DNA of 64,000 nucleotides from Bacillota bacterium. GTDB taxonomy: Bacteria; Bacillota; Desulfotomaculia; Desulfotomaculales; Nap2-2B. Location of the stretch: positions 19,126 to 83,125 of the forward strand of contig JBFMBG010000003.1 in the NCBI GenBank assembly GCA_040755215.1, read 5' to 3'. The notes below the pieces were generated by a model, which saw nothing but the letters and a program-made list of their open reading frames with translations, was not told where the DNA came from and did no database searches. Position numbers and translations under genes: made by a program. Below, piece after piece: positions 1,240 through 59,696 of this stretch (its first letter is position 1; every line of letters begins with the position of its first letter).

Positions 1240-1251
1240 CCCCTGTCGGTG

Positions 1252-1926: not shown

Positions 1927-2030
1927 CCCAAGCAGGGCGCATTTTTTTGCAAATCTTTTGTTCAGGTAGCGCGCTTAGTTTCTGTTGTGAGGGCTGGAAT
2001 TTGTCCGGGCGAACGACATATGCGCGGCGT

Positions 2031-2105: not shown

Positions 2106-2194
2106 GCAAGTAATAATGAAAATGAGACCTAAGGCAGGCATATTTTCCTTTGTGCCTGTTGCCTTTGTGCCTCTATTTTCAGAGGAGTGCGAGG

Positions 2195-3229: not shown

Positions 3230-3256
3230 GCGCGGCAAGAGGGAAGGGGTAAGTAG

Positions 3257-10732: not shown

Positions 10733-10927
10733 TTTAAATTCATAGGAATTTTCTTTTTTCTGCCTTCCAGATATGGAATAAAATGAGTTACTCTCCATCA
10801 AGGCAGAATAAATAAAGGCACTGAGGCACAAAGGCACAGAGGCACTGAGGCTCAAAGAGAAACGGACCGGGAATATTAACTTTATGCCTTTGTGCCTGGG
10901 GAACTTTGTGCCTGATCTTTAAATTTA
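10733..10927 (-). repeat. ~190-bp structured intergenic repeat element, copy A (inverted relative to B and C)
   Basis: The reverse complement aligns end to end with 29454-29640 and 32293-32466. Shared blocks: gatcaggcacaaagtt(t/c)cccaggcac, atattcccgg, agtgcctttatttat, ttccatat(a/c)tggaagg, agaaaaaa(a)gaaaattc. It carries five tandem t-n-n-gtgcc units. Confidence 0.85.
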
Positions 10928-11750: not shown

Positions 11751-12016
11751 TACTATTAGGTAGCTAAGACTACTATAGCATAAGTTAAAAGGTCTGACAA
11801 TCATTAATTAATAGCGGGCACAAAGGTCCAGAAAGGGCACACAGGCAAAAAAGGACAAATCTAAATAACATAATGATTCACGTATTCTGCCTCCCCAATG
11901 AAGTACCTGACGCTGGAATAGTCTCCTTTGTTTGTCTGGTTTGTTCCTGTTTTTTTAAGTTGATGTGAATGTTAATCCGTTATATAATATGGGCATTGAT
12001 AGAGAGGGGGAGGATT

Positions 12017-12988: not shown

Positions 12989-13049
12989 GGGAGCAAGGAG
13001 GATTTTCCCGAAAGATGAAAATTCTTTGTCTAAAGACTTGGTAAAAAAT

Positions 13050-13079
13050 GAATAAGTCTTTCCCTCTTGTTATATACTA
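13050..13079 (+). promoter_or_regulatory. Possible forespore sigma-G/F-type promoter of spoVT
   Basis: GAATAA, 17 nt spacer, TATACTA, compared with the GHATAR-N17/18-CATWHTA consensus. B. subtilis spoVT is sigma-G dependent. Confidence 0.35.
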
Positions 13080-13133: not shown

Positions 13134-13694
13134 ATGAAAGCAACCGGTATTGTGCGCCGTATAGACGATCTGGGACGAGTGGTGATCCCTAAGGAAATAC
13201 GCAGGACATTGCGTATTCGGGAAGGTGACCCGCTGGAAATCTTTGTGGATAGGGAAGGTGAGGTAATCCTCAAGAAGTACTCGCCCATTGGCGAACTGGG
13301 CGATTTTGCCAAGGAGTATGCCGATTCTTTATACGAAGCATTGGGGCACATAGCCTGTATCGCCGACCGCGATACCATTATTGCCGTTGCCGGGGCACCG
13401 AAAAAGGAGTATATCAATAAACCGATCGGGCCTGCCGTCGAAAAGGCAATGGAGGAGCGCAAGGCGATCGTCATTAACAATCCCGGCGAAGACCCTTTCT
13501 GCAGGGAGTGCATGATTGTCGAAGATGGAGAGTGCAAATATTCCGCCGAAGTGATTGCCCCGATCATTGCCGAAGGCGATCCCATCGGAGCCGTCATCCT
13601 GGCCTCTAAAGAACCGGACGTAAAGATGGGTGAGTTGGAGCTCAAGCTGGCGGAAACGGCGGCCGGGTTCCTGGCCAAACAGATGGAACAATAA
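13134..13694 (+). CDS. spoVT: Stage V sporulation protein T (AbrB-family regulator)
   Basis: N-terminal MKATGIVRRIDDLGRVVIPKEIRRTLRIREGDPLEIF SpoVT/AbrB swapped-hairpin domain, plus a GAF-like C-terminal domain. 186 aa. Confidence 0.92.
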   Translation: MKATGIVRRIDDLGRVVIPKEIRRTLRIREGDPLEIFVDREGEVILKKYSPIGELGDFAKEYADSLYEALGHIACIADRDTIIAVAGAPKKEYINKPIGPAVEKAMEERKAIVINNPGEDPFCRECMIVEDGECKYSAEVIAPIIAEGDPIGAVILASKEPDVKMGELELKLAETAAGFLAKQMEQ

Positions 13695-29453: not shown

Positions 29454-29640
29454 ATTTAAATTAATGATCAGGCACAAAGTTTCCCAGGCACAAAGGCATA
29501 AAGTCTATATTCCCGGTACATTTCTCTTTGTGCCTCTGTGTCTTAGTGCCTTTATTTATTCCGCTTCGTGGAGAGTAGCTCCTTTTTATTCCATATATGG
29601 AAGGCAGAAAAAAAGAAAATTCCTATGGAATTAAATTTTA
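29454..29640 (+). repeat. ~190-bp structured intergenic repeat element, copy B (abuts the spoIIE start)
   Basis: Aligns with copy C and with the reverse complement of copy A. Contains inverted GGCACAAAG/CTTTGTGCC arms around atattcccgg, a 14-bp palindrome ttccatatatggaa, and attccata...tatggaat arms. Confidence 0.85.
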
Positions 29641-32295: not shown

Positions 32296-32466
32296 AATTA
32301 AAGATCAGGCACAAAGTTTCCCAGGCACTAAGGCACAAAGTTAATATTCCCGGGGCATTTCTCTTTGTGCCTTAGTGCCTTTATTTACTCCGCTCCGTGG
32401 AGAAGTAGCTCTGTTTATTCCATATCTGGAAGGTAGAAAAAAAGAAAATTCGTATGGAATTAGATT
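32293..32466 (+). repeat. ~190-bp structured intergenic repeat element, copy C
   Basis: Same orientation as copy B. Contains a perfect 18-bp inverted repeat: aggcactaaggcacaaag (32323-32340) and ctttgtgccttagtgcct (32363-32380), with a 22-nt loop. Confidence 0.85.
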
Positions 32467-45079: not shown

Positions 45080-45371
45080 TGGAGCAGCCTCCTGTTCGCA
45101 ATTTTTCCCTTGGTGAGATCGCCGCAAAGACGCAAGAACGAAAAGAATTAAGAAATAAATAAAGGCCCGGCGTTTATTTATTAGCTTGAGCGCCGGTCCT
45201 AAAGAACATACATAAAGAAAAACATTTTACCGCTTCCCTTTTAACTTTTTAATGTTCCGTCCACCAAAGGACTTTTCTGCTCGTTAGCCTAAAGACAATG
45301 TTCAATTCCAGGATAACATTTTCCCCTGTGCCTTTGGGCTTGTATACTTTGTGCCTCGATACCTATTTACC

Positions 45372-46013: not shown

Positions 46014-47108
46014 CTATGTCAGGTAATAGCTGATCAGATAGAAAAGCGCTCCGAGAAAAGAGGTGAAAGGCAGTGTGCAAGCCCAGGCGGCCAGCATCCG
46101 GCCGACCGTGCGCCACTTTACGCTGGACCGGCCCTCGCCGGCGCCCACCCCCGTGATTGCTGAGGAAATGATGTGGGTGGTGCTGACCGGCAGGTGCAGG
46201 ATTGTTGCCGACAGGATAGTCAGCGACGCGCTCAGGTCGGCGGCAAAGCCGTTTGCCGGCGCCAGCCGGGTAATGCCGTGGGCCAGAGTGCGGATGATTC
46301 GCCAGCCGCCCGCCGCCGTCCCCAGGGCCAGAAAAAGGGCGGAGGCGCTTTTCACCCAGAAGGGGACCTGGAGCGTTTCCTGGCCTCCGGAAATGACCAG
46401 GGCGAGGGTGATTACCCCCATGGTCTTTTGGGCGTCGTTGCTGCCGTGACTAAAGGCCTGGAGAGTGGCGGAGATTCTCTGCAGAAAAAGAAAACGGCGC
46501 TCCGAACGGGAACGGGAGAGGATTTGCAAGGAAAATAAAAGGTTAAAGCAGGTCATCACGCAAAACCCCGTCAAAAAGGCCAGCGGAGGAGATACAGCCA
46601 GAGCTAAAAACGCGTTTCCCAGCCCGGTCCGGTCCAGCACCCGGCTGCCGGCGGCCGCGTAGGCCGCCCCGGTTAAAGCGCCGAGCAGGGCATGGGAGGA
46701 GCTGCTGGGCAGCCCGCCGAGCCAGGTAGCCAGATTCCAGATAATCGCGGCCGCCAGGGTAGCCGCGATTATCTGCAGTCCGCTCTGGGCATCGAAAGGA
46801 CGGATCAGGTTCCCGGCGATATTCTGGGCAACCCCGGTAAAGGCGAGGGCGCCCAGAAAATTCATCACTGCCGCCAGGAGCACGGCTGTTCGCGGAAGCA
46901 GGGCGCCCGTTGCGATGGCCGTGGCCACCGCATTGGCCGTATCGTGAAAACCGTTGATAAAGTCAAAGGCAAAGGCGAGCAGGATAACCAGGAACAGGCT
47001 CAAGACGATCTGGTCGGGCACCGGGTGCTTTCTCCCTTCCGGATTAAATCGCGGACCGCGAAAGATTTCTGCTCGCGGGCAAAATTTGAAAATGCTATAA
47101 TTAATCAT
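46014..47108 (-). CDS. pit: PiT-family inorganic phosphate transporter
   Basis: FDFINGFHDTANAVAT near the N-terminus and a second HGSNDAQKTMG repeat. Multi-pass membrane protein. The start may be GTG 47021. No adjacent DUF47/PhoU-like partner. Confidence 0.87.
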   Translation of the reverse strand: MINYSIFKFCPRAEIFRGPRFNPEGRKHPVPDQIVLSLFLVILLAFAFDFINGFHDTANAVATAIATGALLPRTAVLLAAVMNFLGALAFTGVAQNIAGNLIRPFDAQSGLQIIAATLAAAIIWNLATWLGGLPSSSSHALLGALTGAAYAAAGSRVLDRTGLGNAFLALAVSPPLAFLTGFCVMTCFNLLFSLQILSRSRSERRFLFLQRISATLQAFSHGSNDAQKTMGVITLALVISGGQETLQVPFWVKSASALFLALGTAAGGWRIIRTLAHGITRLAPANGFAADLSASLTILSATILHLPVSTTHIISSAITGVGAGEGRSSVKWRTVGRMLAAWACTLPFTSFLGALFYLISYYLT

Positions 47109-47156
47109 ATTGACCTGGTAATTAATTCAGTACGGTCATGGGAGGTAAAAACATTT

Positions 47157-47335
47157 ATGGTGAATAGTGGCACGGGGAAAAATGACATTGGGGATCCTTT
47201 TCCCGACTTCCTTGGGGTGGAAATTTTGGAGCTGAAAAATTAACCCGGCGCACAGGGGTGTACCGGGTGGAAATTACCAACGAACAGCAAGAAAAAATTG
47301 CCATTGCCCAGGGGCTGGTTTTCCGGCAGGGTTAA
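47157..47335 (+). pseudogene. Internally deleted remnant of a PaaI-type hotdog thioesterase
   Basis: SD GGAGG before ATG 47157. N-terminal MVNSGTGKNDIGDPFPDFLGVEILELKN* fits PaaI N-termini. A second frame gives ...GVYRVEITNEQQEKIAIAQGLVFRQG*, a typical PaaI C-terminus. The catalytic middle is missing. Confidence 0.35.
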
Positions 47336-48093
47336 AGCAAGATTTGTTCATTGCCTTTCTCCCCATCCAGCTCCAGCAGGGTTTTTTGGACGTCCTGCAA
47401 GACGAAGGCGAAAAAATCGGGAAAGTCCGCGGAAACTATCTCGGCCGCCCGCAAAATTAATCCGGTTACCCGCTCCACGTCAATGTGAATCCGGTGCCGG
47501 GTGAACATCTGCACGTCGTAGCACGCGGCCAGGCTCCGGGCGCAAACCCGGGAAGTGTCAATGTAATTGGCAAAGTTATGCACGCGGCGGAAGAAAACAC
47601 CGGGGTCGAGCTGATAAAAACGGCCCATCCGGCGGCTGATTTTTTCAATGAGCGGAGCGTTGGCAAAAGTTTTGACCAAAACTTCGCCGTAAGGGCCGGA
47701 ACTGCCGATGTTCAATTCGATACCCATTTCGACGATGTTATGCGCTTTCCACCAGCCCATTTCCGGGGGCAGGTTGCACGCCTTGATTGTTTCTTCAACC
47801 AGGAGGCGGCCTTTTTCAAAGCAATACCCCCGTTCAAAGGAAAGGTATTTTTCGTCCCCGTAATAGTCCAGGCCCCTTGGGTCGATGCCGTGGGTGATTA
47901 CTCCCCGGGCAAAGTTATAAAAATCCTCGTCTTCCCGGGAGGCAGCCAGCAACTCGGCGCCCCGGCCGTGGCTGGCCAGCCGGTTTGGACACACACCCGC
48001 GGCTATGTCGGGAAAAATGCTGCCCAGCGCCAGCGCGTCGGGAAGAAAGCCCAGAACTTTTTCGGCGAAAAATACGTGGGTTTGCGGGTACAT
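47332..48093 (-). CDS. Hypothetical protein, possibly a zinc-dependent phospholipase-C-like metal hydrolase
   Basis: 253 aa. N-terminal THVFFAEKVL...LGSIFPDI and later ITHGIDP and WWKAHN histidines recall the 'zinc dependent phospholipase C family' pattern (TH..IA.kv...LGsiaPD). Assignment is tentative. Confidence 0.35.
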   Translation of the reverse strand: MYPQTHVFFAEKVLGFLPDALALGSIFPDIAAGVCPNRLASHGRGAELLAASREDEDFYNFARGVITHGIDPRGLDYYGDEKYLSFERGYCFEKGRLLVEETIKACNLPPEMGWWKAHNIVEMGIELNIGSSGPYGEVLVKTFANAPLIEKISRRMGRFYQLDPGVFFRRVHNFANYIDTSRVCARSLAACYDVQMFTRHRIHIDVERVTGLILRAAEIVSADFPDFFAFVLQDVQKTLLELDGEKGNEQILL

Positions 48094-48300
48094 TTTCGTT
48101 TCCTTGCTTGTCTTTTTGCCGGCCTTGCTTACCTTACCGTCTAAAAGGACTGTTCCTTTGATCGATTGGGATCGTTCCGCTGCGTAGTTGCGGGGTCTTT
48201 TTATTCTGACTTTACGCCTTTGTGCCTTTTAAAACTTTGCTGCCTGAGTATTAAGTTCTCCCTGAATCAGCCGGGCTCCTTCTTTTTGGGCCTGACCTTT

Positions 48301-48507
48301 TTATTTAAATAAACCATAGACGGCCAGGACCAGGGCCAGCACAACGGTTGCGGCCAGGCCGCCGCAAAAAATCCAAAAGCGCCTTTCCAATTGGGTAAGA
48401 CGTAACTCGGTCTGCTGAAAGCGTTGTTCCGTCGGGACAACCAGTTTTTCCTGAATGGCTCCGGCCAGTGATTTAACGACGGTGGATTTTTCAGCTTGCG
48501 GGGTCAT
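48301..48507 (-). CDS. Small tail-anchored helical protein (P3) of the GTPase operon
   Basis: Trimmed to ATG 48507 (SD GGGAGGGG). 68 aa. Helical N-terminal part (TEQRFQQTELRLTQLERRF), then a single C-terminal TM (WIFCGGLAATVVLALVLAVYGLF). Overlaps the P2 stop by 17 nt. Confidence 0.55.
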   Translation of the reverse strand: MTPQAEKSTVVKSLAGAIQEKLVVPTEQRFQQTELRLTQLERRFWIFCGGLAATVVLALVLAVYGLFK

Positions 48508-48727
48508 CGTGTTCCCCTCCCTTGACGTTATTAATGGCGTCACGCAGGGCGGCGAGCATTACCACGGGGCTTTCCTCAATTTTTTGTTCAAGGCAGGTGA
48601 TTTTTTCCTGCAGGGATTGAATGGCCAGCGCCAGCTCCTTGTTTTCATCCTTGATGGGTTGGAGCATTTTGTTTTTTAAACCTGTCAATACTTCCCTGAT
48701 TAATTCTTGAACGGCTTCTTCTTTCAT
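48491..48727 (-). CDS. Small helical protein (P2) of the GTPase operon
   Basis: 78 aa. SD GGAGGGG 5 nt before the ATG. Heptad-like sequence. Shares an N-terminal [IL]IREVxT motif with P1 and AIQ..QEK with P3. Confidence 0.55.
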   Translation of the reverse strand: MKEEAVQELIREVLTGLKNKMLQPIKDENKELALAIQSLQEKITCLEQKIEESPVVMLAALRDAINNVKGGEHDDPAS

Positions 48728-48742
48728 TGTTTCCCCTCCATT

Positions 48743-48931
48743 TTAGATTTCGTTTAGCACGCGCCGGATTAGTTTCAGCATGGTCACCATTTCCTGCTGG
48801 ATAATCTGTCCCACTTCTTTCTCGAATTCCGTGACCAGGTTGCGCTTAATTTCCGTGCCGGTATCGGTGCTTACTTCCCGGATGATTTTTCTTAACCGTT
48901 CATCTAAAAGCCTGGCGTTTTCCATAATCAA
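48743..48931 (-). CDS. Small helical protein (P1) of the GTPase operon
   Basis: 60-62 aa. AGGAGG precedes TTG 48931 / ATG 48925. The start overlaps the last ~9 codons of the GTPase gene (translational coupling). Confidence 0.5.
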   Translation of the reverse strand: MIMENARLLDERLRKIIREVSTDTGTEIKRNLVTEFEKEVGQIIQQEMVTMLKLIRRVLNEI

Positions 48932-50960
48932 ATGACCTCCTTTCCATGGTGGAAATTATTTCTTGAATCCGGCGCAAGACCTTTTCAAAACCACCGTCGC
49001 GGCCGTTTAAAGCGGCCAGGGAAGAGACCAGAAACAGCGGCGGGTTCGGCAGGAAAGAAGTTAACTGCCGGCGGACGAAGTTTGCTGCCCTTTCCCGCTC
49101 CAGCGCGGTCAGGGTATCCGCGAAATTGATCAAAAAGAGTACCCTGCCCGCCTTGGCCAGGTGACCGACCCTGCCCGCGACGTTTTCCCAAACTTCCTTT
49201 TGATAGGGTGCCGAGATGAGTTGTTTACCGTGGATAAAGACCAGCAGAAGACTGCTCTCACTCAGCGCTTTCAAGCAGGTCTGGCGGTGCTGGGCAAAAA
49301 CCGAATCGATACCGGGCGTGTCAAGAAAAGTAGCCAGTTTAAAAAATTCCGCCGGATGGTAAATATCCACCGCTTCCAGGAAAAAGTTTAACGGGCCGGT
49401 CAACAAATGGTGGAATTCCTCTCGTTCGCGTTCGAGATGAAAGATGAGGTGGGCAGCCTGTTTGAAGGTAAGCCTGACCGCCGTCACGACGCCGTTCTTT
49501 TGCAAATTCTTTTGCAGGTGGGAAGGAGCAAGAAGCAACGCCCGGGTTTCCATCAACCTGTTCACTAATTCCTGTTTAGTTGTTTTCTGGTACCTTCCCT
49601 TAATGGCCACTTCTATTCCGGTTATTTGCGGAACGCTTTCTTCCTCGGTCAAATATTGGCAGAGGACGTTTGTTTCCTCCCGTTTAAAGCTTCCCTTGCC
49701 TTTTCCGGGCTCCCAAATATCTAAGGTAAGTTGCCTGGGAAAATAAGCCACGGCAATTTTTTCCGGTCCGTAATGCAGGCGCGTCAGATAACTGGTTGTC
49801 GGTTTATCCTCGGCCGGTAAAATGGCTTCCTTCATTATGGCGTTGAAAAAGGTGGACTTGCCGGAGGAAAATGGTCCCCAGGCCGTCACGACGAATTTTT
49901 CGGGAGAGGCCGGCGGTAATTTCAAGAGGTTTTCCGGACCGATCGCAAGATGTTTGCGGAAGCCGTAATGTTTGCCGGTTTCCGGGCGGCCGGCCCCGGA
50001 AAGTGGCGCTTTCTGAAGGATCCGCCGGTTATTTTCCGCCAGGGCGGCGTTGACCGTTTTTTGTTTTCTAAGCTCGTTGATTGCTTGCTTAAAAGCCAGA
50101 ATTCGCCCGGCCTTTTCTTTGATTAACCAGAAGTTGAGCAGAAAATCGGGTTCCCCCGGGAGAACGGACAATTTCGCCAGCATTTCGGGAAGAAGCGAGT
50201 CTTCCTGGCGCAGGTGCCCTTCAATTTGGGAAAATACATCTTCAATTAGTTTCTCCTGTAAAAAAACGCCCAGAGCACTTATACTTGCCTGATCACGGGT
50301 ATTGAGCGTATGGACGGGTATTTGCGCGCCGAATAACTCCCTTAAGGCAGCCCTGGTGCTGGCCAGGGAGGTGCCGTCTGGCTGACCGGCGTTGCAGTTT
50401 AGCCAGAAAGAAAGCGCCCTGTAGCTGTTTTGGCCAAGAAGTTCCTTTAGCTTTTGCAAAAAATGCCGGTCGCAAATCTGGATACCGCGCTGGTGGAAAA
50501 GGTAGATGATTTGCCCGGCATCGGCAAAGATTTGTTCCAAGACGGAAGAATGCTCCCAAACCGGTGAGTCGACCCCCGGCGTATCGACCAGGTGGCATAG
50601 TTTAAGTAAGCGGTGGTTGAGCGTCACCTCCACTTTTTCTGGCTTTAGCCGGGAATGCCTGGTTTTTAAGGCATAAGTTAATTCCCGCGGGTCGGCAAGG
50701 TACCAAAGTCGCTCTTTAGTCCATAGTTTGGCCATAAACTTTGTTCCGTGGGTATAAAAAACCGGGCAAGGGGTGTTCAACTGAAATGCCGGATTGTTTT
50801 GGAGCAGGCTGTTTACGAGCGTCGTCTTGCCCGTGTTCAGGCAGCCGCCGACCACTATCTTTGGCCGGGCAAAATCTTCCTGGTAATTTTCGATTAGTTG
50901 CCTGGCCTGCTGAATAAAGAATGTTTCTTTTCCAGTCGAAGGGTTTTTGGGAATTTGCAT
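48900..50960 (-). CDS. Fused double dynamin-like/P-loop GTPase (686 aa)
   Basis: SD AGGTGG. Domain 1: GGCLNTGKT (aa 38-46), DTPG (126-129). Domain 2: GPFSSGKSTFFNAIM...ILP...KPTT (aa 362-389, dynamin_N-like G1/G2), DTPG (547-550), NFAD (612-615). A helical linker lies between them. Confidence 0.7.
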   Translation of the reverse strand: MQIPKNPSTGKETFFIQQARQLIENYQEDFARPKIVVGGCLNTGKTTLVNSLLQNNPAFQLNTPCPVFYTHGTKFMAKLWTKERLWYLADPRELTYALKTRHSRLKPEKVEVTLNHRLLKLCHLVDTPGVDSPVWEHSSVLEQIFADAGQIIYLFHQRGIQICDRHFLQKLKELLGQNSYRALSFWLNCNAGQPDGTSLASTRAALRELFGAQIPVHTLNTRDQASISALGVFLQEKLIEDVFSQIEGHLRQEDSLLPEMLAKLSVLPGEPDFLLNFWLIKEKAGRILAFKQAINELRKQKTVNAALAENNRRILQKAPLSGAGRPETGKHYGFRKHLAIGPENLLKLPPASPEKFVVTAWGPFSSGKSTFFNAIMKEAILPAEDKPTTSYLTRLHYGPEKIAVAYFPRQLTLDIWEPGKGKGSFKREETNVLCQYLTEEESVPQITGIEVAIKGRYQKTTKQELVNRLMETRALLLAPSHLQKNLQKNGVVTAVRLTFKQAAHLIFHLEREREEFHHLLTGPLNFFLEAVDIYHPAEFFKLATFLDTPGIDSVFAQHRQTCLKALSESSLLLVFIHGKQLISAPYQKEVWENVAGRVGHLAKAGRVLFLINFADTLTALERERAANFVRRQLTSFLPNPPLFLVSSLAALNGRDGGFEKVLRRIQEIISTMERRSFDYGKRQAFR

Positions 50961-51186
50961 AAACTAACCACCTGCTTTATGTGAAAAATATCCTTGAACA
51001 GGTATTTATTAGCAGGATATTAAGAAGTATTAAAAAATATGACCACGAAAAAGATGAAATTTAGCGAAAATCCCCGTGGGTGAGAGGTGAAATTGATTTC
51101 TGCCGCGTATTGGGGGAGGCTTTACAGAAGGAGTAAAATTGGCTAAGATATATAGAAAAAAAGTGGCTAAAGGGGGGGAGAACAGG

Positions 51187-51342
51187 ATGCTGAATTCAGC
51201 AGCTATTCATCGCAACGTCCGGGAGCGCTCTGATGCCGCCAGTGTTTTTGAACGGGTTTTGAAATGTTTAATTTTCGTTGCCGGCCCGGCGGTTGTTTAC
51301 CTGCTTGGCGGGTGGATTATCGGCCTTCCCTTTTTAAGATGA
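51187..51342 (+). CDS. Hypothetical small membrane protein (51 aa)
   Basis: ATG 51187 with SD GGGGGAG 7 nt upstream. C-terminal hydrophobic helix CLIFVAGPAVVYLLGGWIIGLPF. Confidence 0.3.
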   Translation: MLNSAAIHRNVRERSDAASVFERVLKCLIFVAGPAVVYLLGGWIIGLPFLR

Positions 51343-51486
51343 GTTTGCCCGGTAGAAAACGCAATCATCCAAACTAAAGCGCTAATAAGGTCATGTTCGC
51401 AAATACCCCTTGCGCGTCGCGCCGGTGTTGCGCGATTCCGCGGGTTCCGGCTTGAAATTACTGCCGTCCGGGTGCTGGCTGGCACT

Positions 51487-51777
51487 CTATTTTTTTAGTA
51501 CCTCCAAAGGGTGCTTGGCCCGGCGGTCGTATTCCTGGACCTGGGTAAAAAAATTAATCAGGAACCGGCGCATTTCTTCATCCCTGGCTACCGGCGGCCG
51601 GCGCAGGTGCCTGATCAGCAGGATGATGGACTTCAGGTGCTCGATTAATGCTTTGTCCGCACTGCCCGCAACCTCCATGCTCCTGATTTTCTCGGCACAG
51701 GCCTGGCTGATTTCCGGAATTGTTTTATCCTGCAAATTCAACAAAAAGGCTTTTAAGTTCTCCAGGTCGGGAGTCAT
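51487..51777 (-). CDS. Hypothetical 96-aa helical protein
   Basis: ATG with AAGGAAGGA upstream. No recognisable family. Confidence 0.4.
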   Translation of the reverse strand: MTPDLENLKAFLLNLQDKTIPEISQACAEKIRSMEVAGSADKALIEHLKSIILLIRHLRRPPVARDEEMRRFLINFFTQVQEYDRRAKHPLEVLKK

Positions 51778-51938
51778 GGGCGCACGATCCTTCCTTATTC
51801 TTGTGTTTTGAAGAATTAGATTTATTAAATTCTACCCTTTGTAAAAAATTCCTGCCCGGGATGCAAAACTATCTTTGCGGTGGGCAGGAAGGGAAAGTTC
51901 ATTTTTGGCAGGACGGAAAACCGGGAGGAGGGAAAAAC

Positions 51939-51967
51939 TTGACAGGGAAAACAAAAGAAGTTATAAT
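51939..51967 (+). promoter_or_regulatory. Perfect-consensus sigma-A promoter of the Rrf2 regulator gene
   Basis: TTGACA (51939-44), exactly 17 nt spacer, TATAAT (51962-67). An inverted repeat tatact-atctg-agtata lies at 51978-51994, just downstream. Confidence 0.65.
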
Positions 51968-52018
51968 GCAACTAAACTATACTATCTGAGTATATATTTA
52001 ATCAGGGGAGCAACTTTC

Positions 52019-52429
52019 GTGCAGTTAAATCAGGCAACCGACTATGCTTTTCGAGCTGTGTTACACCTGGCCGGTTCGGCTCCCGGCGAAGTGGTGACCG
52101 CCCAGGAAATTGCCAGGAGAGAAAAAGTTCCGTTGCGATTTTTGCTTAAAATCATGCGTTCCCTGGTCGAGGCCGGCATAGTCAAGTCGGTGCGCGGCGT
52201 GACGGGCGGCTACGCGCTGGCCCGGCCGCCCGGCAAAATCACCCTTTTGGATGTCGTCGAGGCGGTCGAGGGGCCGGTGCGCCTTAACCGTTGCCTGATC
52301 GATCAGGAATACTGTACCAAACGCTGGGCAAACCGCTGTCCTGTGCACCAGATCCTGGAGGTCATTCAGAACGCCGTAATTCAGGAACTTGCCCGCCGCA
52401 ATTTTGCAGAGCTTGCGCAAAAAGCCTAG
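52019..52429 (+). CDS. Rrf2-family transcriptional regulator
   Basis: Trimmed to GTG 52019 (SD AGGGGAG). VQLNQATDYAFRAVLHLA...TAQEIARREKVPLRFLLKIMRSLVEAGIVKSVRGVTGGYALAR. Cys residues C-x6-C-x(5)-C (CLIDQEYCTKRWANRC) suggest an Fe-S-binding type. Confidence 0.87.
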   Translation: MQLNQATDYAFRAVLHLAGSAPGEVVTAQEIARREKVPLRFLLKIMRSLVEAGIVKSVRGVTGGYALARPPGKITLLDVVEAVEGPVRLNRCLIDQEYCTKRWANRCPVHQILEVIQNAVIQELARRNFAELAQKA

Positions 52430-52480
52430 ATAAAGGGTCTAATTAGTGGAGCGAAAAAGAGTTTTATTAAAGAAAAGTAT

Positions 52481-52498
52481 ACTAAACCGGTATAGTAT
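52481..52498 (+). promoter_or_regulatory. Candidate Rrf2 operator upstream of cydA
   Basis: actaaac-cgg-tatagtat shares ACTAAAC plus TATA(C/G)TAT with 51971-51988 (actaaac-tatactat) in the regulator's own promoter region. The adjacent agtatact is an 8-bp palindrome. Confidence 0.35.
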
Positions 52499-52627
52499 TG
52501 CTGTTTATTTAACTTTTCACCAAAAGGGGGTGTGTGTCTGGAAACCACGTCAGATCACTGGCGACTTTTTTAGGACAACTGGGAGTTGCCAATCCTATTA
52601 TTTTTTCGTGAATAAGGAGGGAGATTT

Positions 52628-54013
52628 ATGGAAGCGCTTTTGCTTTCCCGCTGGCAGTTTGCCGTTACCTCGGTGTACCACTTCCTGTTCGTTCCCCTGA
52701 CCCTGGGTCTTTCGGTCCTGGTGGCCGTCATGGAAACTGTCTACGTGCGGACGGGAAACGAGACCTATAAGCAGATGGCCCGGTTTTGGGGAAAGCTTTT
52801 CGTGATCAATTTCGCCATGGGGGTAGTTACCGGCATCGTGCAGGAATTTCATTTCGGGATGAACTGGTCGGAGTATTCCCGGTTCGTCGGGGACGTTTTC
52901 GGGGCCCCCCTGGCGGTGGAAGCGTTGGCCGCCTTTTTCCTGGAGTCCACCTTTCTGGGCGTCTGGATCTTCGGTTGGGATAAGTTGCCCAAGACTTTGC
53001 ACGCCGCCTCCATCTGGCTGGTGGCCCTGGCTTCAAATCTTTCGGCGTTCTGGATTCTCGTAGCCAATTCCTTTATGCAGGAGCCGGTGGGTTACGTCGT
53101 GCGCAACGGCCGGGCGGAAATGACCGATTTTCTGGCCCTGCTCACCAACCCGCACGTACTCTACCAGTTTCCCCACACGGTGCTGGCCGGCTTTGCCACG
53201 GCCGCCTTTTTCGTGATGGGAATCAGCGCCTATTATCTTTTGCGCAAAGCCAATCCTGACTTTTTCCGCCGTTCCTTCCGGCTTGCTTTACCGGTAGGCG
53301 CCGTTTGCATCTTGCTGGTCATGGCGGTGGGTCATTTTCAGGGTCAGCACCTGGTTAAGTCCCAGCCGATGAAGATGGCGGCAGCCGAGGCCCTCTGGGA
53401 AAGTGCCGAACAGGCCCCTTTGAACCTGGTGGCCTTGATTGACGAAAAGCAGCAAACCAACCCCTTGGAGATCAGCATACCCGGCCTGGGAAGCTTTTTG
53501 GCGGTCAACACCTTCCGGGGCGAGGTAAAAGGAATCAAGGACATTCAGGCCGCGTACGCAGAAAAGTACGGCCCTGGCAATTACATCCCGCCGGTAACCC
53601 CTGTTTTCTGGAGCTTTCGCGTCATGGTGGCCGCCGGCTTATGGTTGCTTGTCCTTGCTTTCTCAGCCCTGTACTTCTGGCGAAAGGGGCGGTTGGAAGA
53701 AAAGCCGCTGGTACTTAAAGCGTTGCTCTGGAGCATTCCCGTTCCTTATCTGGCCAACACCGCGGGCTGGTATCTGGCCGAGGTGGGCCGCCAGCCCTGG
53801 ATCGTCTACGGGCTCCAGCGGGTGGAAGAGGCCGTTTCACCGGTAGTTTCGGCCGGCGCCGTGCTGACTACTCTGGTTGTTTTCACCCTCCTTCTGGGAG
53901 CCCTGGCGGCAGTAGACGGATACTTAATGTACCGGGTTGTTAAGCAGGGGCCTGAAGAAGCACTGCTGGCCCCAGCGGCAGAAAAACCCGAGGGGGTGTC
54001 TTTATGGACTTAA
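52628..54013 (+). CDS. cydA: Cytochrome bd ubiquinol/menaquinol oxidase subunit I
   Basis: SRWQFAVTSVYHFLFVPLTLGL, Q-loop region, GWYLAEVGRQPW. SD AAGGAGGGAG. 461 aa. Confidence 0.95.
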   Translation: MEALLLSRWQFAVTSVYHFLFVPLTLGLSVLVAVMETVYVRTGNETYKQMARFWGKLFVINFAMGVVTGIVQEFHFGMNWSEYSRFVGDVFGAPLAVEALAAFFLESTFLGVWIFGWDKLPKTLHAASIWLVALASNLSAFWILVANSFMQEPVGYVVRNGRAEMTDFLALLTNPHVLYQFPHTVLAGFATAAFFVMGISAYYLLRKANPDFFRRSFRLALPVGAVCILLVMAVGHFQGQHLVKSQPMKMAAAEALWESAEQAPLNLVALIDEKQQTNPLEISIPGLGSFLAVNTFRGEVKGIKDIQAAYAEKYGPGNYIPPVTPVFWSFRVMVAAGLWLLVLAFSALYFWRKGRLEEKPLVLKALLWSIPVPYLANTAGWYLAEVGRQPWIVYGLQRVEEAVSPVVSAGAVLTTLVVFTLLLGALAAVDGYLMYRVVKQGPEEALLAPAAEKPEGVSLWT

Positions 54014-55008
54014 ATGTGCTCTGGTTTATCCTGATTGCCGTCCTGTTTACCGGTTATTTCTTTTTGGAAGGATTTGATTACGGAGTGGGGATATTGCTGC
54101 CCTTCCTGGGGCGCAGCGACATCGAGCGCCGGGTGCTGCTCAACTCCATCGGCCCCTTTTGGGACGGCAACGAGGTGTGGCTGCTCACGGCCGGCGGAGC
54201 CATCTTTGCCGCCTTTCCGCACTGGTACGCCACCCTCTTCAGCGGTTTTTACCTGGCCCTATTTTTGATGTTGGTGGCGCTGATCGGGCGGGGGGCAGCC
54301 CTGGAGTTCCGCAGTAAAGACGACCGCCCTTTCTGGCGCAGCCTGTGGGACTGGGTTATGTTCGGGGGAAGCCTGGTGCCGGCGCTCTTGTGGGGCGTGG
54401 CCGTAACCAACCTTGTGCAGGGGGTGCCGATTAACGGCCAGATGCAATATACAGGCACTTTCTTTGACCTCCTTTCGCCCTACACCCTGGCTGGCGGCCT
54501 GGCCATCCTTTTACTCTTTGCGTTTCACGGCGCCCTTTTCCTGACGCTGAAAACAGAGGAGGATTTGGCTGCCCGGTCCCGCAGCCTGGGCCTGAAGTTG
54601 GGCGTTTTAGCGGTGGGTGCCCTTTTCCTCCTGGTGGTTTTAAGTTACCTGCAAACCGACGTGATGGACCGGGCGGGGACGGCCTTGCTTTTCTGGGGGG
54701 CGGGGACGGCTCTGCTGGCTGCCTGCGGATTCTTGCGGGCGGGCCGGTGCGGCTGGGCTTTTGTAAGCAGCGGGCTGGCCATTGTTTTCACTACGGCGGC
54801 TTTCTTTGGCGGGCTCTTCCCCCGGGTGATGGTTTCCAGCCTTCACCCAGAGTGGAGTCTGACCGTCTATAACGCCGCTTCCAGCCCTTATACCTTAAAG
54901 GTAATGACTGTCATCGCCCTTACCCTGGTGCCCGTCGTGCTCCTTTACCAGGGCTGGACCTACTGGGTTTTCCGTCGGCGCGTCAGCGCCAGGCGCCTGG
55001 AATATTGA
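54004..55008 (+). CDS. cydB: Cytochrome bd oxidase subunit II
   Basis: LWFILIAVLFTGYFFLEGFDYGVGILLPF, GPFWDGNEVWL. 10-nt overlap with cydA. Confidence 0.92.
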   Translation: MDLNVLWFILIAVLFTGYFFLEGFDYGVGILLPFLGRSDIERRVLLNSIGPFWDGNEVWLLTAGGAIFAAFPHWYATLFSGFYLALFLMLVALIGRGAALEFRSKDDRPFWRSLWDWVMFGGSLVPALLWGVAVTNLVQGVPINGQMQYTGTFFDLLSPYTLAGGLAILLLFAFHGALFLTLKTEEDLAARSRSLGLKLGVLAVGALFLLVVLSYLQTDVMDRAGTALLFWGAGTALLAACGFLRAGRCGWAFVSSGLAIVFTTAAFFGGLFPRVMVSSLHPEWSLTVYNAASSPYTLKVMTVIALTLVPVVLLYQGWTYWVFRRRVSARRLEY

Positions 55009-55093
55009 AGCCTGGGGAAAATGAATATTCGTTCCGGACGAGCGGAGCATGCCTTGCCGCTTGCCTTGGTATGGTTGGGGGAAAAGATGAAGT

Positions 55094-56827
55094 ATGGTAG
55101 AAAAACGTCTGCTGCGCGAGGCAAAAACAGTGCGCCTTGCCCTGGCCCTGGCGGTGGGTGCGGGTCTGGGGGCCGGCCTGCTGGCGGTGCTGCAGGCCGG
55201 CTGCCTGGCCCGGGTGGTGGACGGGGTTTTCCTCGGGGGCCGGGATCTGGACGGGGTGCGCACCTGGCTTTGGGCCCTGTTGGGGATAATCTTGTTGCGT
55301 GCGGTGTTGACCTGGGCGGGTGAAGTGGCGGCTTTCCGGGGCGCTGCCCGGATCAAACACGATTTACGCCGGCGGCTTGTAAAGCACCTCTTCACTTTAG
55401 GTCCGGTGTCCGTGCGGGAGGAGCGAACCGGGGAACTGGTCAACCTCCTGGTGGAAGGGGTGGAAGCTGTGGCGGTCTACTTCGCCCGTTACCTGCCGCA
55501 GCTTGCCTTAGCCGCCCTGGTTCCCCTGGTGGTGGTTGGTTTTGTTTTTCCCCTGGATTTAACTTCCGGGTTGATCCTTATTTTTACTGCTCCGCTAATT
55601 CCCCTGTTCATGTATCTAGTCAGCGGTTGGGCCCAGATTTTGAACCGGCGGCAGTGGGAAAATTTAAGCCGGATGAGCGCCCACTTCCTGGATGTTTTGC
55701 AGGGGCTCACCACTTTGAAAATCTTTGGTCAAAGCAAAACCCAGGCGGAAGTGATTGCCCGGATCAGCGATCGTTTTCGGGACACCACCCTGGGTGTGCT
55801 CCGGGTAGCCTTTCTCTCGGCCCTGGCCCTGGAATTTTTGGCCACCATCAGTACCGCCCTGGTGGCGGTTGGGGTAGGCCTGCGCCTGGTGTACGGCCGC
55901 ATCCCTTTTGAACACGCCCTTTTCCTGCTGATCCTGGCCCCGGAGTTCTACCTTCCTTTGCGGCTTCTGGGGAGCCATTTCCACGCCGGACTGGCCGGGG
56001 TCAGCGCCGCCGGGCGCATCTTTGCCCTGCTTGAAGCGCCTCTTCCCGAGCGTGTGCCGCCCCGGGGGGAAGCAGTTCCGTCGCTTGCGGGCGAATTTCA
56101 AATCGTCTTTGACGACGTGCATTACGCCTACGCGGGTGGCGACCGGCCGGCCCTGCAAGGAGCTTCCTTTAGGCTGAGCAGCGGGGAGCGGGTAGCTCTC
56201 GTGGGACCCAGCGGAGCAGGGAAAAGCACCATCGTAAATTTGCTTTTGCGTTTCGCGGAGCCCGACCGGGGTAAAATTACGGTCAATGGGGTTCCCCTGG
56301 GGAATGTACCGCCGGAGGAATGGCGCCGGTACGTGGCCCTGGTGCCCCAGCGTCCTTACCTTTTTTCCGGAACGATTGCCGACAACATTCGCCTGGGGCG
56401 CCCGGAGGCCTCCCTGGATGAAGTGGTGGCGGCCGCCAGGCGGGCTGGAGCCCACGGGTTTATCAGGAACCTTCCCCTGGGGTACGAGACGTTCGTCGGG
56501 GAGAAAGGGCTGCGTTTAAGCGGCGGCCAGGCCCAACTCGTGGCCGTCGCCCGGGCTTTTCTAAAAGACGCGCCCTTACTGATTTTGGATGAAGTCACGG
56601 CAAATCTGGATTTTGCCGCCGAGGAAATATTGCACCGGGTGCTTGAACGCTTGATGGAGGGGCGTACTGTACTGGTGATCGCCCACCGCCTGACCACCGT
56701 TTACCGGGCCCACCGTATTCTGGTGCTGGAAAAGGGCCGGGTGGTTGAAGCAGGCCGACACCAAGAGCTGATGAATCAGCAGGGGGCTTACCGCCGCCTG
56801 GTTGCAGCTTTCGGGGGTGGCCAATGA
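55094..56827 (+). CDS. cydD: Thiol-reductant ABC exporter, CydD-type subunit
   Basis: Six-TM domain plus NBD (GPSGAGKST Walker A, LSGGQAQ signature, LLILDE Walker B). First of two fused TMD-NBD genes after cydAB. The D/C naming is tentative. Confidence 0.8.
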   Translation: MVEKRLLREAKTVRLALALAVGAGLGAGLLAVLQAGCLARVVDGVFLGGRDLDGVRTWLWALLGIILLRAVLTWAGEVAAFRGAARIKHDLRRRLVKHLFTLGPVSVREERTGELVNLLVEGVEAVAVYFARYLPQLALAALVPLVVVGFVFPLDLTSGLILIFTAPLIPLFMYLVSGWAQILNRRQWENLSRMSAHFLDVLQGLTTLKIFGQSKTQAEVIARISDRFRDTTLGVLRVAFLSALALEFLATISTALVAVGVGLRLVYGRIPFEHALFLLILAPEFYLPLRLLGSHFHAGLAGVSAAGRIFALLEAPLPERVPPRGEAVPSLAGEFQIVFDDVHYAYAGGDRPALQGASFRLSSGERVALVGPSGAGKSTIVNLLLRFAEPDRGKITVNGVPLGNVPPEEWRRYVALVPQRPYLFSGTIADNIRLGRPEASLDEVVAAARRAGAHGFIRNLPLGYETFVGEKGLRLSGGQAQLVAVARAFLKDAPLLILDEVTANLDFAAEEILHRVLERLMEGRTVLVIAHRLTTVYRAHRILVLEKGRVVEAGRHQELMNQQGAYRRLVAAFGGGQ

Positions 56828-58626
56828 AATATCTTCTTTTCCTTTTGGAAATAATTGTTCCTTCCTGGCCTTGGGTGCTTTTGGCGGTCTTTCTGGGCTT
56901 TTTCGCCGCGGGGAGTACCGTCGGACTGATGGCTACAGCGGCTTTGCTCATTTCCGGCGCGGCGTTGCATCCCCCGGTAGCCGGGCTGATCATACCCATT
57001 GTAGGAGTGCGTTTTTTCGGCCTTTCCCGGGCAGTGTTCCGCTACCTGGAGCGATATGTGGCCCACGACGCGGTCTTTCGGGTGCTAAGGGAAATCCGGG
57101 TCCGGCTCTACACGGCTCTTGAACCTTTGGCCCCGGCCCGGCTGACGGACCACCACAGCGGGGACCTTTTAAGCCGCCTGGTGACGGACATTGAGACCCT
57201 GCAGAACTTTTCCCTGCGGGTGGTGGCGCCGCCGTTGGTAGCTCTGCTGGTGCTGGCCGGGACGGCTTTCTTTTTAGTCTGGTTTGAACCTGTGCTGGTG
57301 CTTGCCCTGCTGGGATTTTTCATCGCGGGTGGGGTGGCGGTGCCTTTGCTCGCCAGGAGCCTGGGCCGGGGGGTAGGCCGGCGGATGATTGAGGTCAGGG
57401 GAATTCTTAACGCCCACCTGGTGGATACCGTCCAGGGAATGAGCGAAATCATTGCCTTCGGCCAGGACGGGCGGCAACAGGAACGCATAGGGGCGTTGAG
57501 CCGGGAATTGCTTCGCCTGCAGGGACGGGCGGCCGGCGTCAGTGCCCTTTCCAACGCGGCTACCGGCCTGGCCATGAATCTTGCCTTGTGGTCGGTCCTC
57601 CTGCTGACTGTTCCTCTGGTGAGCCGGGAGGAGCTGGACGGCGTCTACCTGGCCATGCTGGCCCTGGGAGCCCAGAGCAGCTTTGAAGTGCTCCCGCCCC
57701 TCCCCATGGTATTTCACTACCTGGAAGAGAGCCTGGCGGCAGGAAAGAGGGTGCTGGCCCTTTTCGGTGCTGAAGCGGCAGTGCAGGTTCCGCCCGGCTT
57801 TTCCCCGGTGCCTGCCGGTTGCTCCACCGGTTGCGACTTGCGCGTTGAGGGTTTGCGTTTTCGCTATGGTCCGGATGAGCCCTACGTCCTGGACGGAGTG
57901 GACTTCGTTCTCCCGGCGGGGGGTCGCCTGGCTGTCGTCGGCCCCAACGGGGCCGGGAAAAGCACCCTGGTTAACCTTCTCTCGCGCTTTTGGGATTACC
58001 AGGAGGGAGCCATTTACCTGGGCGGGCACGAGCTCAAGGCCTATAACCCCGAGGACGTGCGGGGGCTCATCAGTGTGGTTACCCAGCGCACCTATCTTTT
58101 TAACACCACCGTCAGGGAAAATCTCTTGCTGGCCAGGCCCCGGGCGACCAGAGAAGAACTCATTAGGGCGGCCCGGGAAGCGCAGATTCACGATTTTATC
58201 GAGAGCCTGCCCCGGGGATACGACACCTACATCGGGGAGGGGGGCGGCAAACTTTCCGGCGGTCAGCGACAGCGCCTGGCCATTGCCCGGGCATTCCTGA
58301 AAAACGCGCCCTTTCTGATATTGGACGAAGCTACTGCTGATCTTGATCCAATTACTGAACGGGAGCTGCTGCAGGCCATCTACCGCCTTATGCAGGGGAG
58401 GACCACCCTGGTCATCACCCACCGCCTGGTGGGTCTGGAGGCAATGGACGAAATTCTCGTTCTCGAAGGGGGCCGGGTGGTGGAGCGGGGGCGGCACGCG
58501 ACCCTTTTGCAGCGGGGAGGGTTCTATCGCCGTATGTGGGAACTGCAGCAGGAGATGCTGTTATCAGCAATACCCGACGGAAATTCCATGGACAGACGCT
58601 TCCAGGCCCTTTCCCCGCTGGCTTAA
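56824..58626 (+). CDS. cydC: Thiol-reductant ABC exporter, CydC-type subunit
   Basis: TMD plus NBD (GPNGAGKST, LSGGQRQR, FLILDEATADLD). 4-nt overlap with the preceding gene. Confidence 0.8.
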   Translation: MKYLLFLLEIIVPSWPWVLLAVFLGFFAAGSTVGLMATAALLISGAALHPPVAGLIIPIVGVRFFGLSRAVFRYLERYVAHDAVFRVLREIRVRLYTALEPLAPARLTDHHSGDLLSRLVTDIETLQNFSLRVVAPPLVALLVLAGTAFFLVWFEPVLVLALLGFFIAGGVAVPLLARSLGRGVGRRMIEVRGILNAHLVDTVQGMSEIIAFGQDGRQQERIGALSRELLRLQGRAAGVSALSNAATGLAMNLALWSVLLLTVPLVSREELDGVYLAMLALGAQSSFEVLPPLPMVFHYLEESLAAGKRVLALFGAEAAVQVPPGFSPVPAGCSTGCDLRVEGLRFRYGPDEPYVLDGVDFVLPAGGRLAVVGPNGAGKSTLVNLLSRFWDYQEGAIYLGGHELKAYNPEDVRGLISVVTQRTYLFNTTVRENLLLARPRATREELIRAAREAQIHDFIESLPRGYDTYIGEGGGKLSGGQRQRLAIARAFLKNAPFLILDEATADLDPITERELLQAIYRLMQGRTTLVITHRLVGLEAMDEILVLEGGRVVERGRHATLLQRGGFYRRMWELQQEMLLSAIPDGNSMDRRFQALSPLA

Positions 58627-59696
58627 TGGAAAAAGCTGGGGAGAGTCAGGATGATTTCCAGTAAAAAGAGCAGGACAATGGCCAGTTCCAGCAGCATCGA
58701 CTGCTGGTTTACCAGCCGGTTGCTCAAAAAAGAGTAGTTTTGCATGATTACCGAGCTTTTTTGCTGAATGCTCTCCATCCAGGCTCTGGTTCGAAAAATG
58801 GCGAGGGCGGCACCGTATATGCGGGCGTAAAAGACATCCTCGGTAACCTTTAAAGAATTCTGGATCTTTTCCGTAATTTCGTTGATTTCGACAACCAGTT
58901 CCATCAGTTTATTCATAATCTGTCTGTATTGACCCAGGCGCCTGAACTGGGTAACCGCTTCCGCTTCTTCGATGGCGTCGTACATTTTGGTCATTTCTTC
59001 ACTTAGGAGGCTGTCGTAGTAGCGTAATTCCAGCAACTGGGTGAGGGCAAATTCCAGCAAGTCGGGGATGTCGAAACTACCTGTGTTATCGTAAACGAGC
59101 GCGGAACTCCAGGTAATGATCGTGAGGTCTTCCTCGCCATAAGTAAAGGTATGCTGGAGTGTTTCCCTGCGCACCTGCTGACTGACGGGTTCATTCTCGC
59201 CCAAAAGAAGCGGAACCGGGTCCCATTCTTTCTGCCACTGGCGAAAATAAAACAGGAGGTAGTCTTCTTCAAAGCCCCGGTAACCCGGCCTGATCATTGT
59301 TTGCGCCAGGGCTTCCCTTACTTCGTCCCGCTTGTTCACGAACAAATATTCGAGGTCTTCCGTATCGGAAAGATATACGGCCAGGTCGCGGATTTTTTCG
59401 TAGGTGCATGAGCCGCTGAGCAGAATACGCATAATAATGCTGATTACACCTAAATCGTATACTTTGGCGATAAATTTTACCGGGTAGCGCTCTTTGCAGA
59501 TGAGGATATCTTCTTCACCCAGTTCCACCGTGACGGGCGGGTTGGGGATGTGGATGGATTTAGGGCGAATGCGGGACAGTCTTAGCCTGGCGGTGGGCTT
59601 GCTTTCCGCTAAAATTTTTTCCACCAGATGGAGCTGAATCTCTTCGGCTACATCGTAGAGGCGGTACAACCAGATTGCATTTGCCATCGTGTCCAT
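58623..59696 (-). CDS. Hypothetical protein with a C-terminal TM helix, possibly RMD1/DUF155-like
   Basis: 357 aa. C-terminal ...QQSMLLELAIVLLFLLEIILTL resembles the RLEW-IIILI-E tail of DUF155 proteins. Its stop overlaps the cydC stop (convergent). Confidence 0.35.
   Translation of the reverse strand: MDTMANAIWLYRLYDVAEEIQLHLVEKILAESKPTARLRLSRIRPKSIHIPNPPVTVELGEEDILICKERYPVKFIAKVYDLGVISIIMRILLSGSCTYEKIRDLAVYLSDTEDLEYLFVNKRDEVREALAQTMIRPGYRGFEEDYLLFYFRQWQKEWDPVPLLLGENEPVSQQVRRETLQHTFTYGEEDLTIITWSSALVYDNTGSFDIPDLLEFALTQLLELRYYDSLLSEEMTKMYDAIEEAEAVTQFRRLGQYRQIMNKLMELVVEINEITEKIQNSLKVTEDVFYARIYGAALAIFRTRAWMESIQQKSSVIMQNYSFLSNRLVNQQSMLLELAIVLLFLLEIILTLPSFFH

Follow-up and report, generated by a model that had tools for sequence, protein, structure and literature searches.

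To our knowledge, the bacterial dynamin-like proteins (DLPs) described so far, i.e., BDLP, DynA, LeoA, IniA, Cj-DLP1/2, and SynDLP, always carry their membrane-binding element as part of a dynamin-like chain. There is precedent for bacterial DLPs that act in pairs, and for a DLP encoded by two genes whose membrane-binding part is on a chain of its own, as in LeoB/LeoC (PMC4159319; PMC6104087). In Bacillus subtilis DynA, the membrane is bound by the tip of the D1 stalk (K360, F363-365, K367), and both liposome binding and phage protection require this site (PMC12998192). Here we analyzed a window of 64,000 nt from a Bacillota bacterium of the Desulfotomaculales (contig JBFMBG010000003.1 of assembly GCA_040755215.1, positions 19,126 to 83,125), which carries on its minus strand an operon in which the gene for a 686-amino-acid (aa) GTPase is followed by coupled small genes for three proteins of 60 aa (P1), 78 aa (P2), and 68 aa (P3). 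The GTPase superfamily and the two-headed architecture are already known, whereas four features are new: trunk and paddle are naturally absent, three small partners are invariably present, one of these is predicted to be tail-anchored, and the operon has a specific promoter-like motif.

The GTPase gene (48900..50960, minus strand as all genes of the operon) encodes a DynA-related, two-headed dynamin-like protein with truncated stalks. It overlaps with its 3′ end the start of P1 (48743..48925) by 26 nt; a 15-nt gap separates P1 from P2 (48491..48727), and P2 overlaps P3 (48301..48507) by 17 nt. The open reading frame (ORF) of P1 was listed with a TTG start (48743..48931), and the ATG at 48925, 10 nt past AGGAGG, is the start behind this Shine-Dalgarno sequence. 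P2 has the Shine-Dalgarno sequence GGAGGGG, and the ATG of P3 at 48507 lies behind GGGAGGGG, with a GTG at 48543 as the start of an alternative, longer ORF. The overlaps at the GTPase-P1 and P2-P3 junctions, together with the strong Shine-Dalgarno sequences, indicate coupled translation of the operon genes. Neither structured RNAs (Rfam scan of 47000..52600) nor a convincing candidate for an intrinsic terminator after P3 on the minus strand were detected. All ORFs, motif positions, and gene junctions of a preliminary description of this locus were recovered exactly in the sequence. The low GC content that it had ascribed to the operon holds against the immediate flanks (58-62% GC), yet with 50.3% the operon is no GC outlier and is unremarkable against the window (mean 53.4%, standard deviation 3.8; 29th percentile of same-size windows).

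Profile and fold searches agree on a dynamin-like identity of the GTPase, as had been proposed from its motifs. The protein matches Pfam Dynamin_N (PF00350) in two stretches with 79.3 bits (cut-off 27, E 4.4e-22). A family profile and alignment were built from 38 homologues, and in profile searches of the PDB sequences with both halves of the protein Cj-DLP1/2, MFN2, Nostoc BDLP, SynDLP, and IniA were matched. The best match was the Campylobacter DLP pair (5owv), and half 1 matched the G domains of MFN2, IniA, EHD, and Cj-DLP2. An AlphaFold (AF2) model of the GTPase alone, built on the alignment of 38 homologues, reached a predicted local distance difference test (pLDDT) score of 83. Its top Foldseek matches comprised only the dynamin superfamily, namely SynDLP, minimal-GTPase constructs of MFN1/2, BDLP, EHD4, IniA, and Cj-DLP (E 3e-12 to 1e-9, probability 1.00). 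Judged by these profiles and the predicted fold, both halves belong to the fusion-type dynamin class of BDLP, mitofusin, SynDLP, and DynA.

The two GTPase cores seen early on in the 686-aa chain have their P-loops at aa 39-46 and 362-369, and both carry G1 to G3, whose residues are invariant in both halves among the 38 homologues. According to the AF2 model, half 1 (aa 1-316; 50013..50960, minus strand) starts with an N-terminal helix (aa 7-24), which is followed by a G domain (aa 34-219) and by neck-like helices (aa 224-316). Its motifs are G1 at aa 39-46 (GGCLNTGKT from aa 38), G2 with T63, and G3 (DTPG) at 126-129. The invariant columns of this half are G39, G44, K45, T47, D126, P128, and G129, and a family motif, FHQRG, is found at 155-159. 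A linker (aa 318-347), disordered in the model, leads to half 2 (aa 348-686; 48903..49919, minus strand), for which the model gives a DynA-D2-like G domain (aa 356-651), in which a long alpha/beta insert separates G2 from G3, and a lone C-terminal helix (aa 656-685). Here, G1 (GPFSSGKSTFFNAIM) is located at 362-369, ILP at 380, KPTT at 386, G2 at T388/T389, G3 (DTPG) at 547-550, and G4 (NFAD) at 612-615.

The relation to DynA becomes apparent from colinear alignments. The GTPase itself scores 42.5 bits against the DynA equivalog NF052648 (cut-off 1600), the best stretch aligning residues 354-392 with model positions 609-647. A distant homologue of 1201 aa, P0056, is DynA-like (NF052648 E 7e-229), and half 2, insert included, aligns to its residues 609-888 (hhalign, probability 99.3). 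The G2-G3 insert is therefore a feature of DynA D2 and no novelty. Further colinear pieces connect positions 283-426 of the family profile with residues 534-677 of P0056, and positions 548-756 with residues 753-964. Longer family members align to NF052648 with residues 26-162 on model positions 45-185 and with residues 228-471 on 479-720, and thus ~295 DynA positions (~185 to 479) are represented by ~65 residues. In the AF2 model, helical content after the G domains amounts to ~95 residues past the first and one 30-residue helix past the second. By alignments and model, the GTPase is colinear with Bacillus DynA and has lost the D1 trunk and paddle as well as most of the D2 stalk, in agreement with the earlier view that it is much shorter than DynA and that stalk and paddle are missing. 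No hydrophobic segment was found in the GTPase (19-residue Kyte-Doolittle maximum 1.31), and the DynA paddle region is absent too; the protein thus has no membrane-binding element of its own.

The term "miniaturised", which had been used for the GTPase, fits the clade of the window, where lengths range from 678 to 688 aa, but not the family as a whole (678-945 aa): most relatives have 750-810 aa and some have 919-945 aa. The D1 trunk and paddle are absent from all family members, the D2 stalk from some only.

Conservation analysis of the small genes was based on two sets of loci. The first 13 loci comprise the window and relatives reached through the GTPase, among them at least six orthologous loci from the genome collection, while 26 further loci come from a metagenome scan that was seeded with P1 alone. 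The order GTPase-P1-P2-P3 is kept in 39/39 loci, i.e., in 13/13 loci found via the GTPase and in 26/26 found via P1; the 35 full-length GTPases among them form 31 clusters at 90% identity. Pairwise ratios of non-synonymous to synonymous substitution rates (dN/dS), calculated at dS 0.3-2, are 0.12-0.40 for P1, 0.11-0.31 for P2, and 0.09-0.29 for P3. P1-P3 are real genes under purifying selection and are strictly co-conserved with the GTPase, which bears out their initial recognition as genes. Besides 17 clusters of P1-like small proteins, a phmmer search of 1.84 billion representative proteins returned no other credible match for P1.

The same data bear on a second reading, in which the protein would be a double GTPase of ribosome biogenesis similar to EngA/Der and the small ORFs would be unrelated or spurious. 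Half 1 does match Pfam MMR_HSR1 (E 4.1e-10), and there are weak matches at the level of the P-loop to models of Der, Era, YlqF, and YqeH, although the Der model (TIGR03594) is hit with only 19 bits against a cut-off of 306.7 and over residues 30-56 only. No KH domain was detected in the Pfam scan, nor any other RNA-binding domain, and the best sequence and fold matches all fall into the dynamin superfamily. Moreover, the small ORFs are under purifying selection and strictly co-conserved. An ordinary translation or ribosome GTPase is thus refuted by the Der score, the PDB profile search, Foldseek, dN/dS, and the co-conservation in 39/39 loci, and we consider such a function extremely improbable. 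The preliminary description had itself pointed to these two checks, placement of the halves in translation or ribosome GTPase families and conservation of the small ORFs beside homologous GTPases; the halves fall into the dynamin superfamily instead, and the ORFs are conserved with coding-type dN/dS.

P1 is a soluble helical protein whose first 27 residues, MENARxLDERLRxIIREVSxxTGxEIK, are very strongly conserved. Because its first codons overlap the 3′ end of the GTPase gene, several GTPases end with ...GKRQ.... P2, likewise helical, is conserved at both ends: its N-terminal helix (LxxILxGLKxKxVQP) terminates in Pro, and its C-terminal helix (PLxxLAAxRDAINQA) is amphipathic. P3 starts with a helix-Pro motif similar to that of P2, continues with a coiled segment that varies between loci, and closes with a transmembrane helix at the C-terminus (aa 45-67; nt 48307..48375). 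This helix is found in 13/13 orthologues, with 19-residue Kyte-Doolittle maxima of 1.9-3.0 and an end 1-10 residues from the C-terminus; the same hydrophobicity scan revealed no transmembrane-type segment in P1 or P2. P3 is thus a predicted tail-anchored membrane protein, as had been suspected. The further suggestion that all three small proteins are paralogues stands in part: P2 and P3 are plausibly paralogous by a weak profile match (hhalign E 2.8e-4, probability 41%, 48 columns), whereas P1 shows no significant hhalign match to either. Longer GTPases tend to be accompanied by longer P3 proteins (Spearman 0.66, n=34, with few independent clades and no correction for phylogeny). A sub-threshold match of P3 to NCBIfam NF048001 ("GTA head formation protein, RCAP_rcc01685 family"; E 1.9e-4, 21 bits vs a cut-off of 50) covers the coil and the transmembrane part and probably reflects a common layout of small tail-anchored proteins and not homology.

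With moderate confidence, we propose that the GTPase is a DynA-like membrane remodeller without a paddle, for which P3, together with P1 and P2, serves as receptor or adaptor at the membrane. P3 would be held in the cytoplasmic membrane through its C-terminal helix and would form, with the soluble helical P1 and P2, a small coiled receptor/adaptor that docks the GTPase onto the membrane and so takes the place of the lipid-binding paddle of DynA. Nucleotide-driven dimerisation of the G domains, either intramolecularly or between molecules on opposing membranes, could then tether, fuse, seal, or otherwise remodel the membrane, as DynA does. Membrane damage, phage stress, or a step of sporulation could be the physiological occasion. 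A membrane anchor or stalk that the small proteins would supply in trans, as the preliminary description had suggested, fits the family, because all members lack the D1 membrane-binding segment and all carry P1-P3.

Three observations weigh against this proposal. First, G4 of half 1 is atypical (NCNxGxxDG), which leaves the nucleotide specificity of this half uncertain. Second, P1-P3 also accompany the members of 919-945 aa, in which a long helical region is retained at the C-terminus, so that P1-P3 are no simple substitute for the D2 stalk. Third, an origin of P1-P3 as split-off pieces of the stalk is unsupported, as they resemble neither the DynA stalk nor the C-terminal extensions of the longer relatives: profiles of P1-P3 gave only noise against 57 GTPase homologues including the long and the DynA-like ones (best per-domain E 0.15, in a tiny database).

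Tentatively, the GTPase might even be the first bacterial dynamin-like GTPase that needs a dedicated membrane receptor, a natural "split mitofusin" with the G-domain module and the coiled-coil/transmembrane module (P1-P3) on separate chains; we hold this to be possible but somewhat doubtful. If true, the operon would amount to a minimal system, both compact and genetically separable, in which a dynamin drives the tethering or fusion of membranes. With P1-P3 as the anchor, "motor" and "membrane receptor" would be separated in a bacterium within ~900 residues altogether, a convenient setting for asking how cycles of the G domain are coupled to membrane tethering or fusion. The locus further contributes three families of small proteins as well as a conserved promoter-like motif that is specific to the operon.

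The GTPase family is small, with 57 clusters at 90% identity, and is found only in Desulfotomaculia, spore-forming Bacillota, and in some of them. All named clusters are of Desulfotomaculia type, with hosts including Desulfofundulus salinus, Pelotomaculum, Desulfoscipio, and Desulfotruncus; their annotation goes no further than "dynamin family protein", and the small genes are called "hypothetical" if they bear a name at all. Upstream of the GTPase start, at a distance of ~55 nt, we found the promoter-like bipartite motif GTCATA-N15-TAATAT (51017..51043, minus strand), which is the sole match in the 64-kb window (0.1 expected). The bipartite motif is present upstream of the GTPase in all of the first 13 loci. 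In its relaxed form, KYATW-N15/16-TAATAT ([GT][CT]AT[AT]), it occurs in 27 of the 35 loci with intact upstream sequence, compared to 5 matches in 775 kb of background. The presence of an own conserved promoter-like motif suggests dedicated regulation of the operon and not constitutive expression. A sigma-70 scanner does not call the motif, whose -35 half does not fit the sigma-A box.

This motif and the host range lead to a developmental variant of the model, in which the same complex would remodel endospore membranes (fission or fusion during engulfment, or upkeep of the forespore membrane) and would be transcribed by a sporulation sigma factor. We regard this as unlikely. All named hosts are Desulfotomaculia that form endospores, but the family is restricted to some of the Desulfotomaculia, whereas core sporulation genes are universal. 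The misfit to the sigma-A -35 box is in line with a sporulation promoter, and the -35 half, (G/T)CATA, belongs to the ATA type that sporulation sigma factors use (PMC3789822), but the -10 half, TAATAT, is without the CATA box of sigma-E and sigma-K, and the spacing misfits sigma-G. Overall, -10 half and spacing cleanly fit none of the published descriptions of sigma-E, sigma-K, sigma-F, and sigma-G. Coat_F genes, scanned for in the first 13 loci, lie nearby in 4 of them; however, the motif was found upstream of no other gene in the examined loci, Coat_F genes included, and thus does not look like part of a broad sporulation regulon. The window itself holds a reference for comparison, a spoVT orthologue (13134-13694, plus strand; 62% identical to B. 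subtilis SpoVT) with a textbook sigma-G-type promoter, GAATA-N18-TATACTA, at ~13049-13079, which confirms that the sporulation sigma code of this organism resembles that of Bacillus. This promoter clearly differs from the motif of the GTPase operon.

The surroundings of the operon, surveyed in the metagenome loci with 4.5-kb flanks, include genes that could be linked to defence. A gene for a ~290-aa HTH_17 protein lies directly upstream of the operon in 6 of the first 13 loci and 8 of the 26 metagenome loci. SIR2_2 genes are present in 4/13 and 6/26 loci, respectively, all in the Pelotomaculum-type clade, and in the first four together with a gene for a Ski2/HamB-like helicase. In the Pelotomaculum-type loci L009, L010, L047, L048, L063, L070, L073, and L074, the HTH_17 and SIR2_2 genes are divergent from the operon, and in L009, L010, L047, and L048 the Ski2-like helicase has ~1200 aa and PADLOC matches of the HamB type. 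In L008, L049, L052, and L072, the HTH_17 gene is co-oriented with the operon. The HTH_17 protein may be a local regulator or may belong to a defence-island context.

Small transmembrane proteins are common defence effectors, and the operon could thus be read as an anti-phage or abortive-infection module, in which the GTPase would sense infection or membrane perturbation, P3 would be a membrane-disrupting effector instead of an anchor, and P1 and P2 would be regulators. Such a function, which the preliminary description had considered, is quite improbable in our view. DynA protects B. subtilis against phage (PMC8844932, PMC12998192), and in Pelotomaculum-type loci the operon adjoins the HTH_17, SIR2_2, and helicase genes, but the SIR2/helicase neighbours are limited to this one clade (4/13 first loci; SIR2 in 6/26 metagenome loci) and are circumstantial. 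PADLOC reported domain-level matches to LeoA, LeoBC, and mad8, which are confined to the G domain (LeoA with 45 bits over residues 544-637), whereas P1-P3 were at noise and no system was matched; neither an Eleos/LeoABC partner gene (LeoBC) nor a second DLP is present in the operon. In PHROGs nothing was found for the GTPase, P1, and P3, and one insignificant match for P2. Each fetched locus has a single copy of the operon, GC content is unremarkable, and, unlike in a mobile defence island, chromosomal synteny is conserved: an MJ0711_N-like gene upstream and PHO4 downstream are kept between relatives whose GTPases are 35% identical, which argues for vertical chromosomal inheritance. We also found no paper on the operon, on MJ0711, or on dynamins in these genera; with no match in PADLOC, PHROGs, or the literature, the earlier statement that the gene combination is no described system stands.

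The MJ0711_N-like gene is one of several neighbours that recur beside the operon but are not part of its core. In the window, it encodes a 357-aa protein with a C-terminal transmembrane helix (58623..59696, minus strand), whose relatives carry the PF27233 MJ0711_N label; it is found in 9 of the first 13 and 4 of the 26 metagenome loci. An occasional upstream neighbour is the gene for a 96-aa protein (51487..51777, minus strand; 5/13 and 1/26 loci), located upstream of the operon's motif. The 357-aa gene lies directly upstream of the 96-aa ORF in L003 and L050 and ~0.5 kb upstream of the GTPase in L004, whereas in the window a block (51875..58626) separates it from the operon, consisting of a gene for an Rrf2 regulator, the pair of cytochrome bd oxidase genes, and another two large ORFs. 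This block looks like an insertion into an older gene neighbourhood. In L001 (JGI contig, GTPase 100% identical; positions 254-3808), genes for IS110-family transposases are found beyond Rrf2 where the window has the cytochrome bd genes, which suggests strain-level rearrangement beside the operon. A divergent small ORF (51139-51342, plus strand) with a C-terminal hydrophobic segment is located in the 526 nt that separate the 96-aa ORF from the GTPase gene; in the closest relatives (L001, L003, L050), it is likewise predicted as a gene, of ~50 aa.

A frequent neighbour on either side of the operon, again not core, is a gene for a 253-aa all-alpha protein (47332..48093, minus strand in the window), present within the fetched flanks in 7/13 first and 7/26 metagenome loci (14/39). 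It had been labeled as Zn-phospholipase-C-like, a candidate that neither sequence profiles (no match to Pfam or NCBIfam at E up to 1) nor a search of solved folds supports: the all-alpha AF2 model (pLDDT 94.6) has no match in the PDB (best E 0.6). More than 217 homologue clusters exist; those with a named source all stem either from organisms of Desulfotomaculia type or from metagenome-assembled genomes of unclassified Bacillota, and the named ones are all "hypothetical". Invariant residues are H42, H68, H118, H200, D29, D76, D80, E81, E122, E126, and C106. Together with the model, these residues suggest that the protein may represent an undescribed fold of a metal-dependent enzyme, of a kind other than Zn-phospholipase C.

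Between P3 and the 253-aa gene lies a partial copy (48218-48226) of a GGCACAAAG-like repeat. The repeat behind the operon noticed earlier does exist, but it is one copy of an element dispersed over the window and not a local tandem array. The repeat is intergenic, built from units with an 8-nt period, and often has an inverted arm; 15 exact copies of GGCACAAAG occur in the window, and 42 with at most one mismatch compared to 22.7 ± 4.4 in shuffled sequences. Further sites are 2148-2171, 10817-10912, 11817-11844, 29471-29550, 32308-32379, and 45347-45355, with the elements at 29471-29550 and 32308-32379 being nearly identical. These repeats could be elements similar to repetitive extragenic palindromes or miniature inverted-repeat transposable elements (REP/MITE-like), or operator arrays.

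Compared to known systems, the GTPase shares most with DynA, namely two dynamin-like units fused in one chain with colinear pieces, a second half that with its long G2-G3 insert matches the DynA-like D2 G domain, and the same host phylum. It differs in length (686 aa, 678-945 aa in the family, vs ~1190 aa for DynA) and in the absence of the D1 trunk/paddle with its membrane-binding site and, in this clade, of most of the D2 stalk. Moreover, DynA binds lipid unaided and has no known obligate small partners, whereas here three small genes always follow. C. jejuni DLP1/DLP2, the best PDB match by sequence, are paired DLPs, but the operon has no second full-length DLP gene. The Escherichia coli LeoB/LeoC proteins (Eleos) are sequence-recognisable pieces of a canonical DLP; in contrast, P1-P3 resemble no DLP segment. 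As in the layout of mini-MFN1/MFN2, the SynDLP MGD, and atlastin-type proteins, each half resembles a G domain with a short helical bundle, and fold similarity to the truncated MFN/SynDLP constructs reaches target-normalised TM-scores of up to 0.47. However, mini-MFN and the SynDLP MGD are engineered truncations whose parents carry long stalks and transmembrane or paddle segments in the same chain, whereas here the truncated form is natural and the predicted transmembrane segment is found on a separate chain of 68 aa.

In eukaryotes, Drp1/Dnm1 is a soluble dynamin without a lipid-binding domain that is recruited by the tail-anchored coiled-coil receptors Fis1 and Mff. Unlike the GTPase described here, Drp1 possesses a complete stalk and assembles into helical collars for fission. 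The putative interaction of the GTPase with P3 would follow the same logic as that of Drp1 with Fis1/Mff, as a functional analogy for which we claim no homology. Thus, if P1-P3 constitute the anchor, the operon would be a bacterial counterpart of the adaptor-dependent recruitment of dynamins in eukaryotes.

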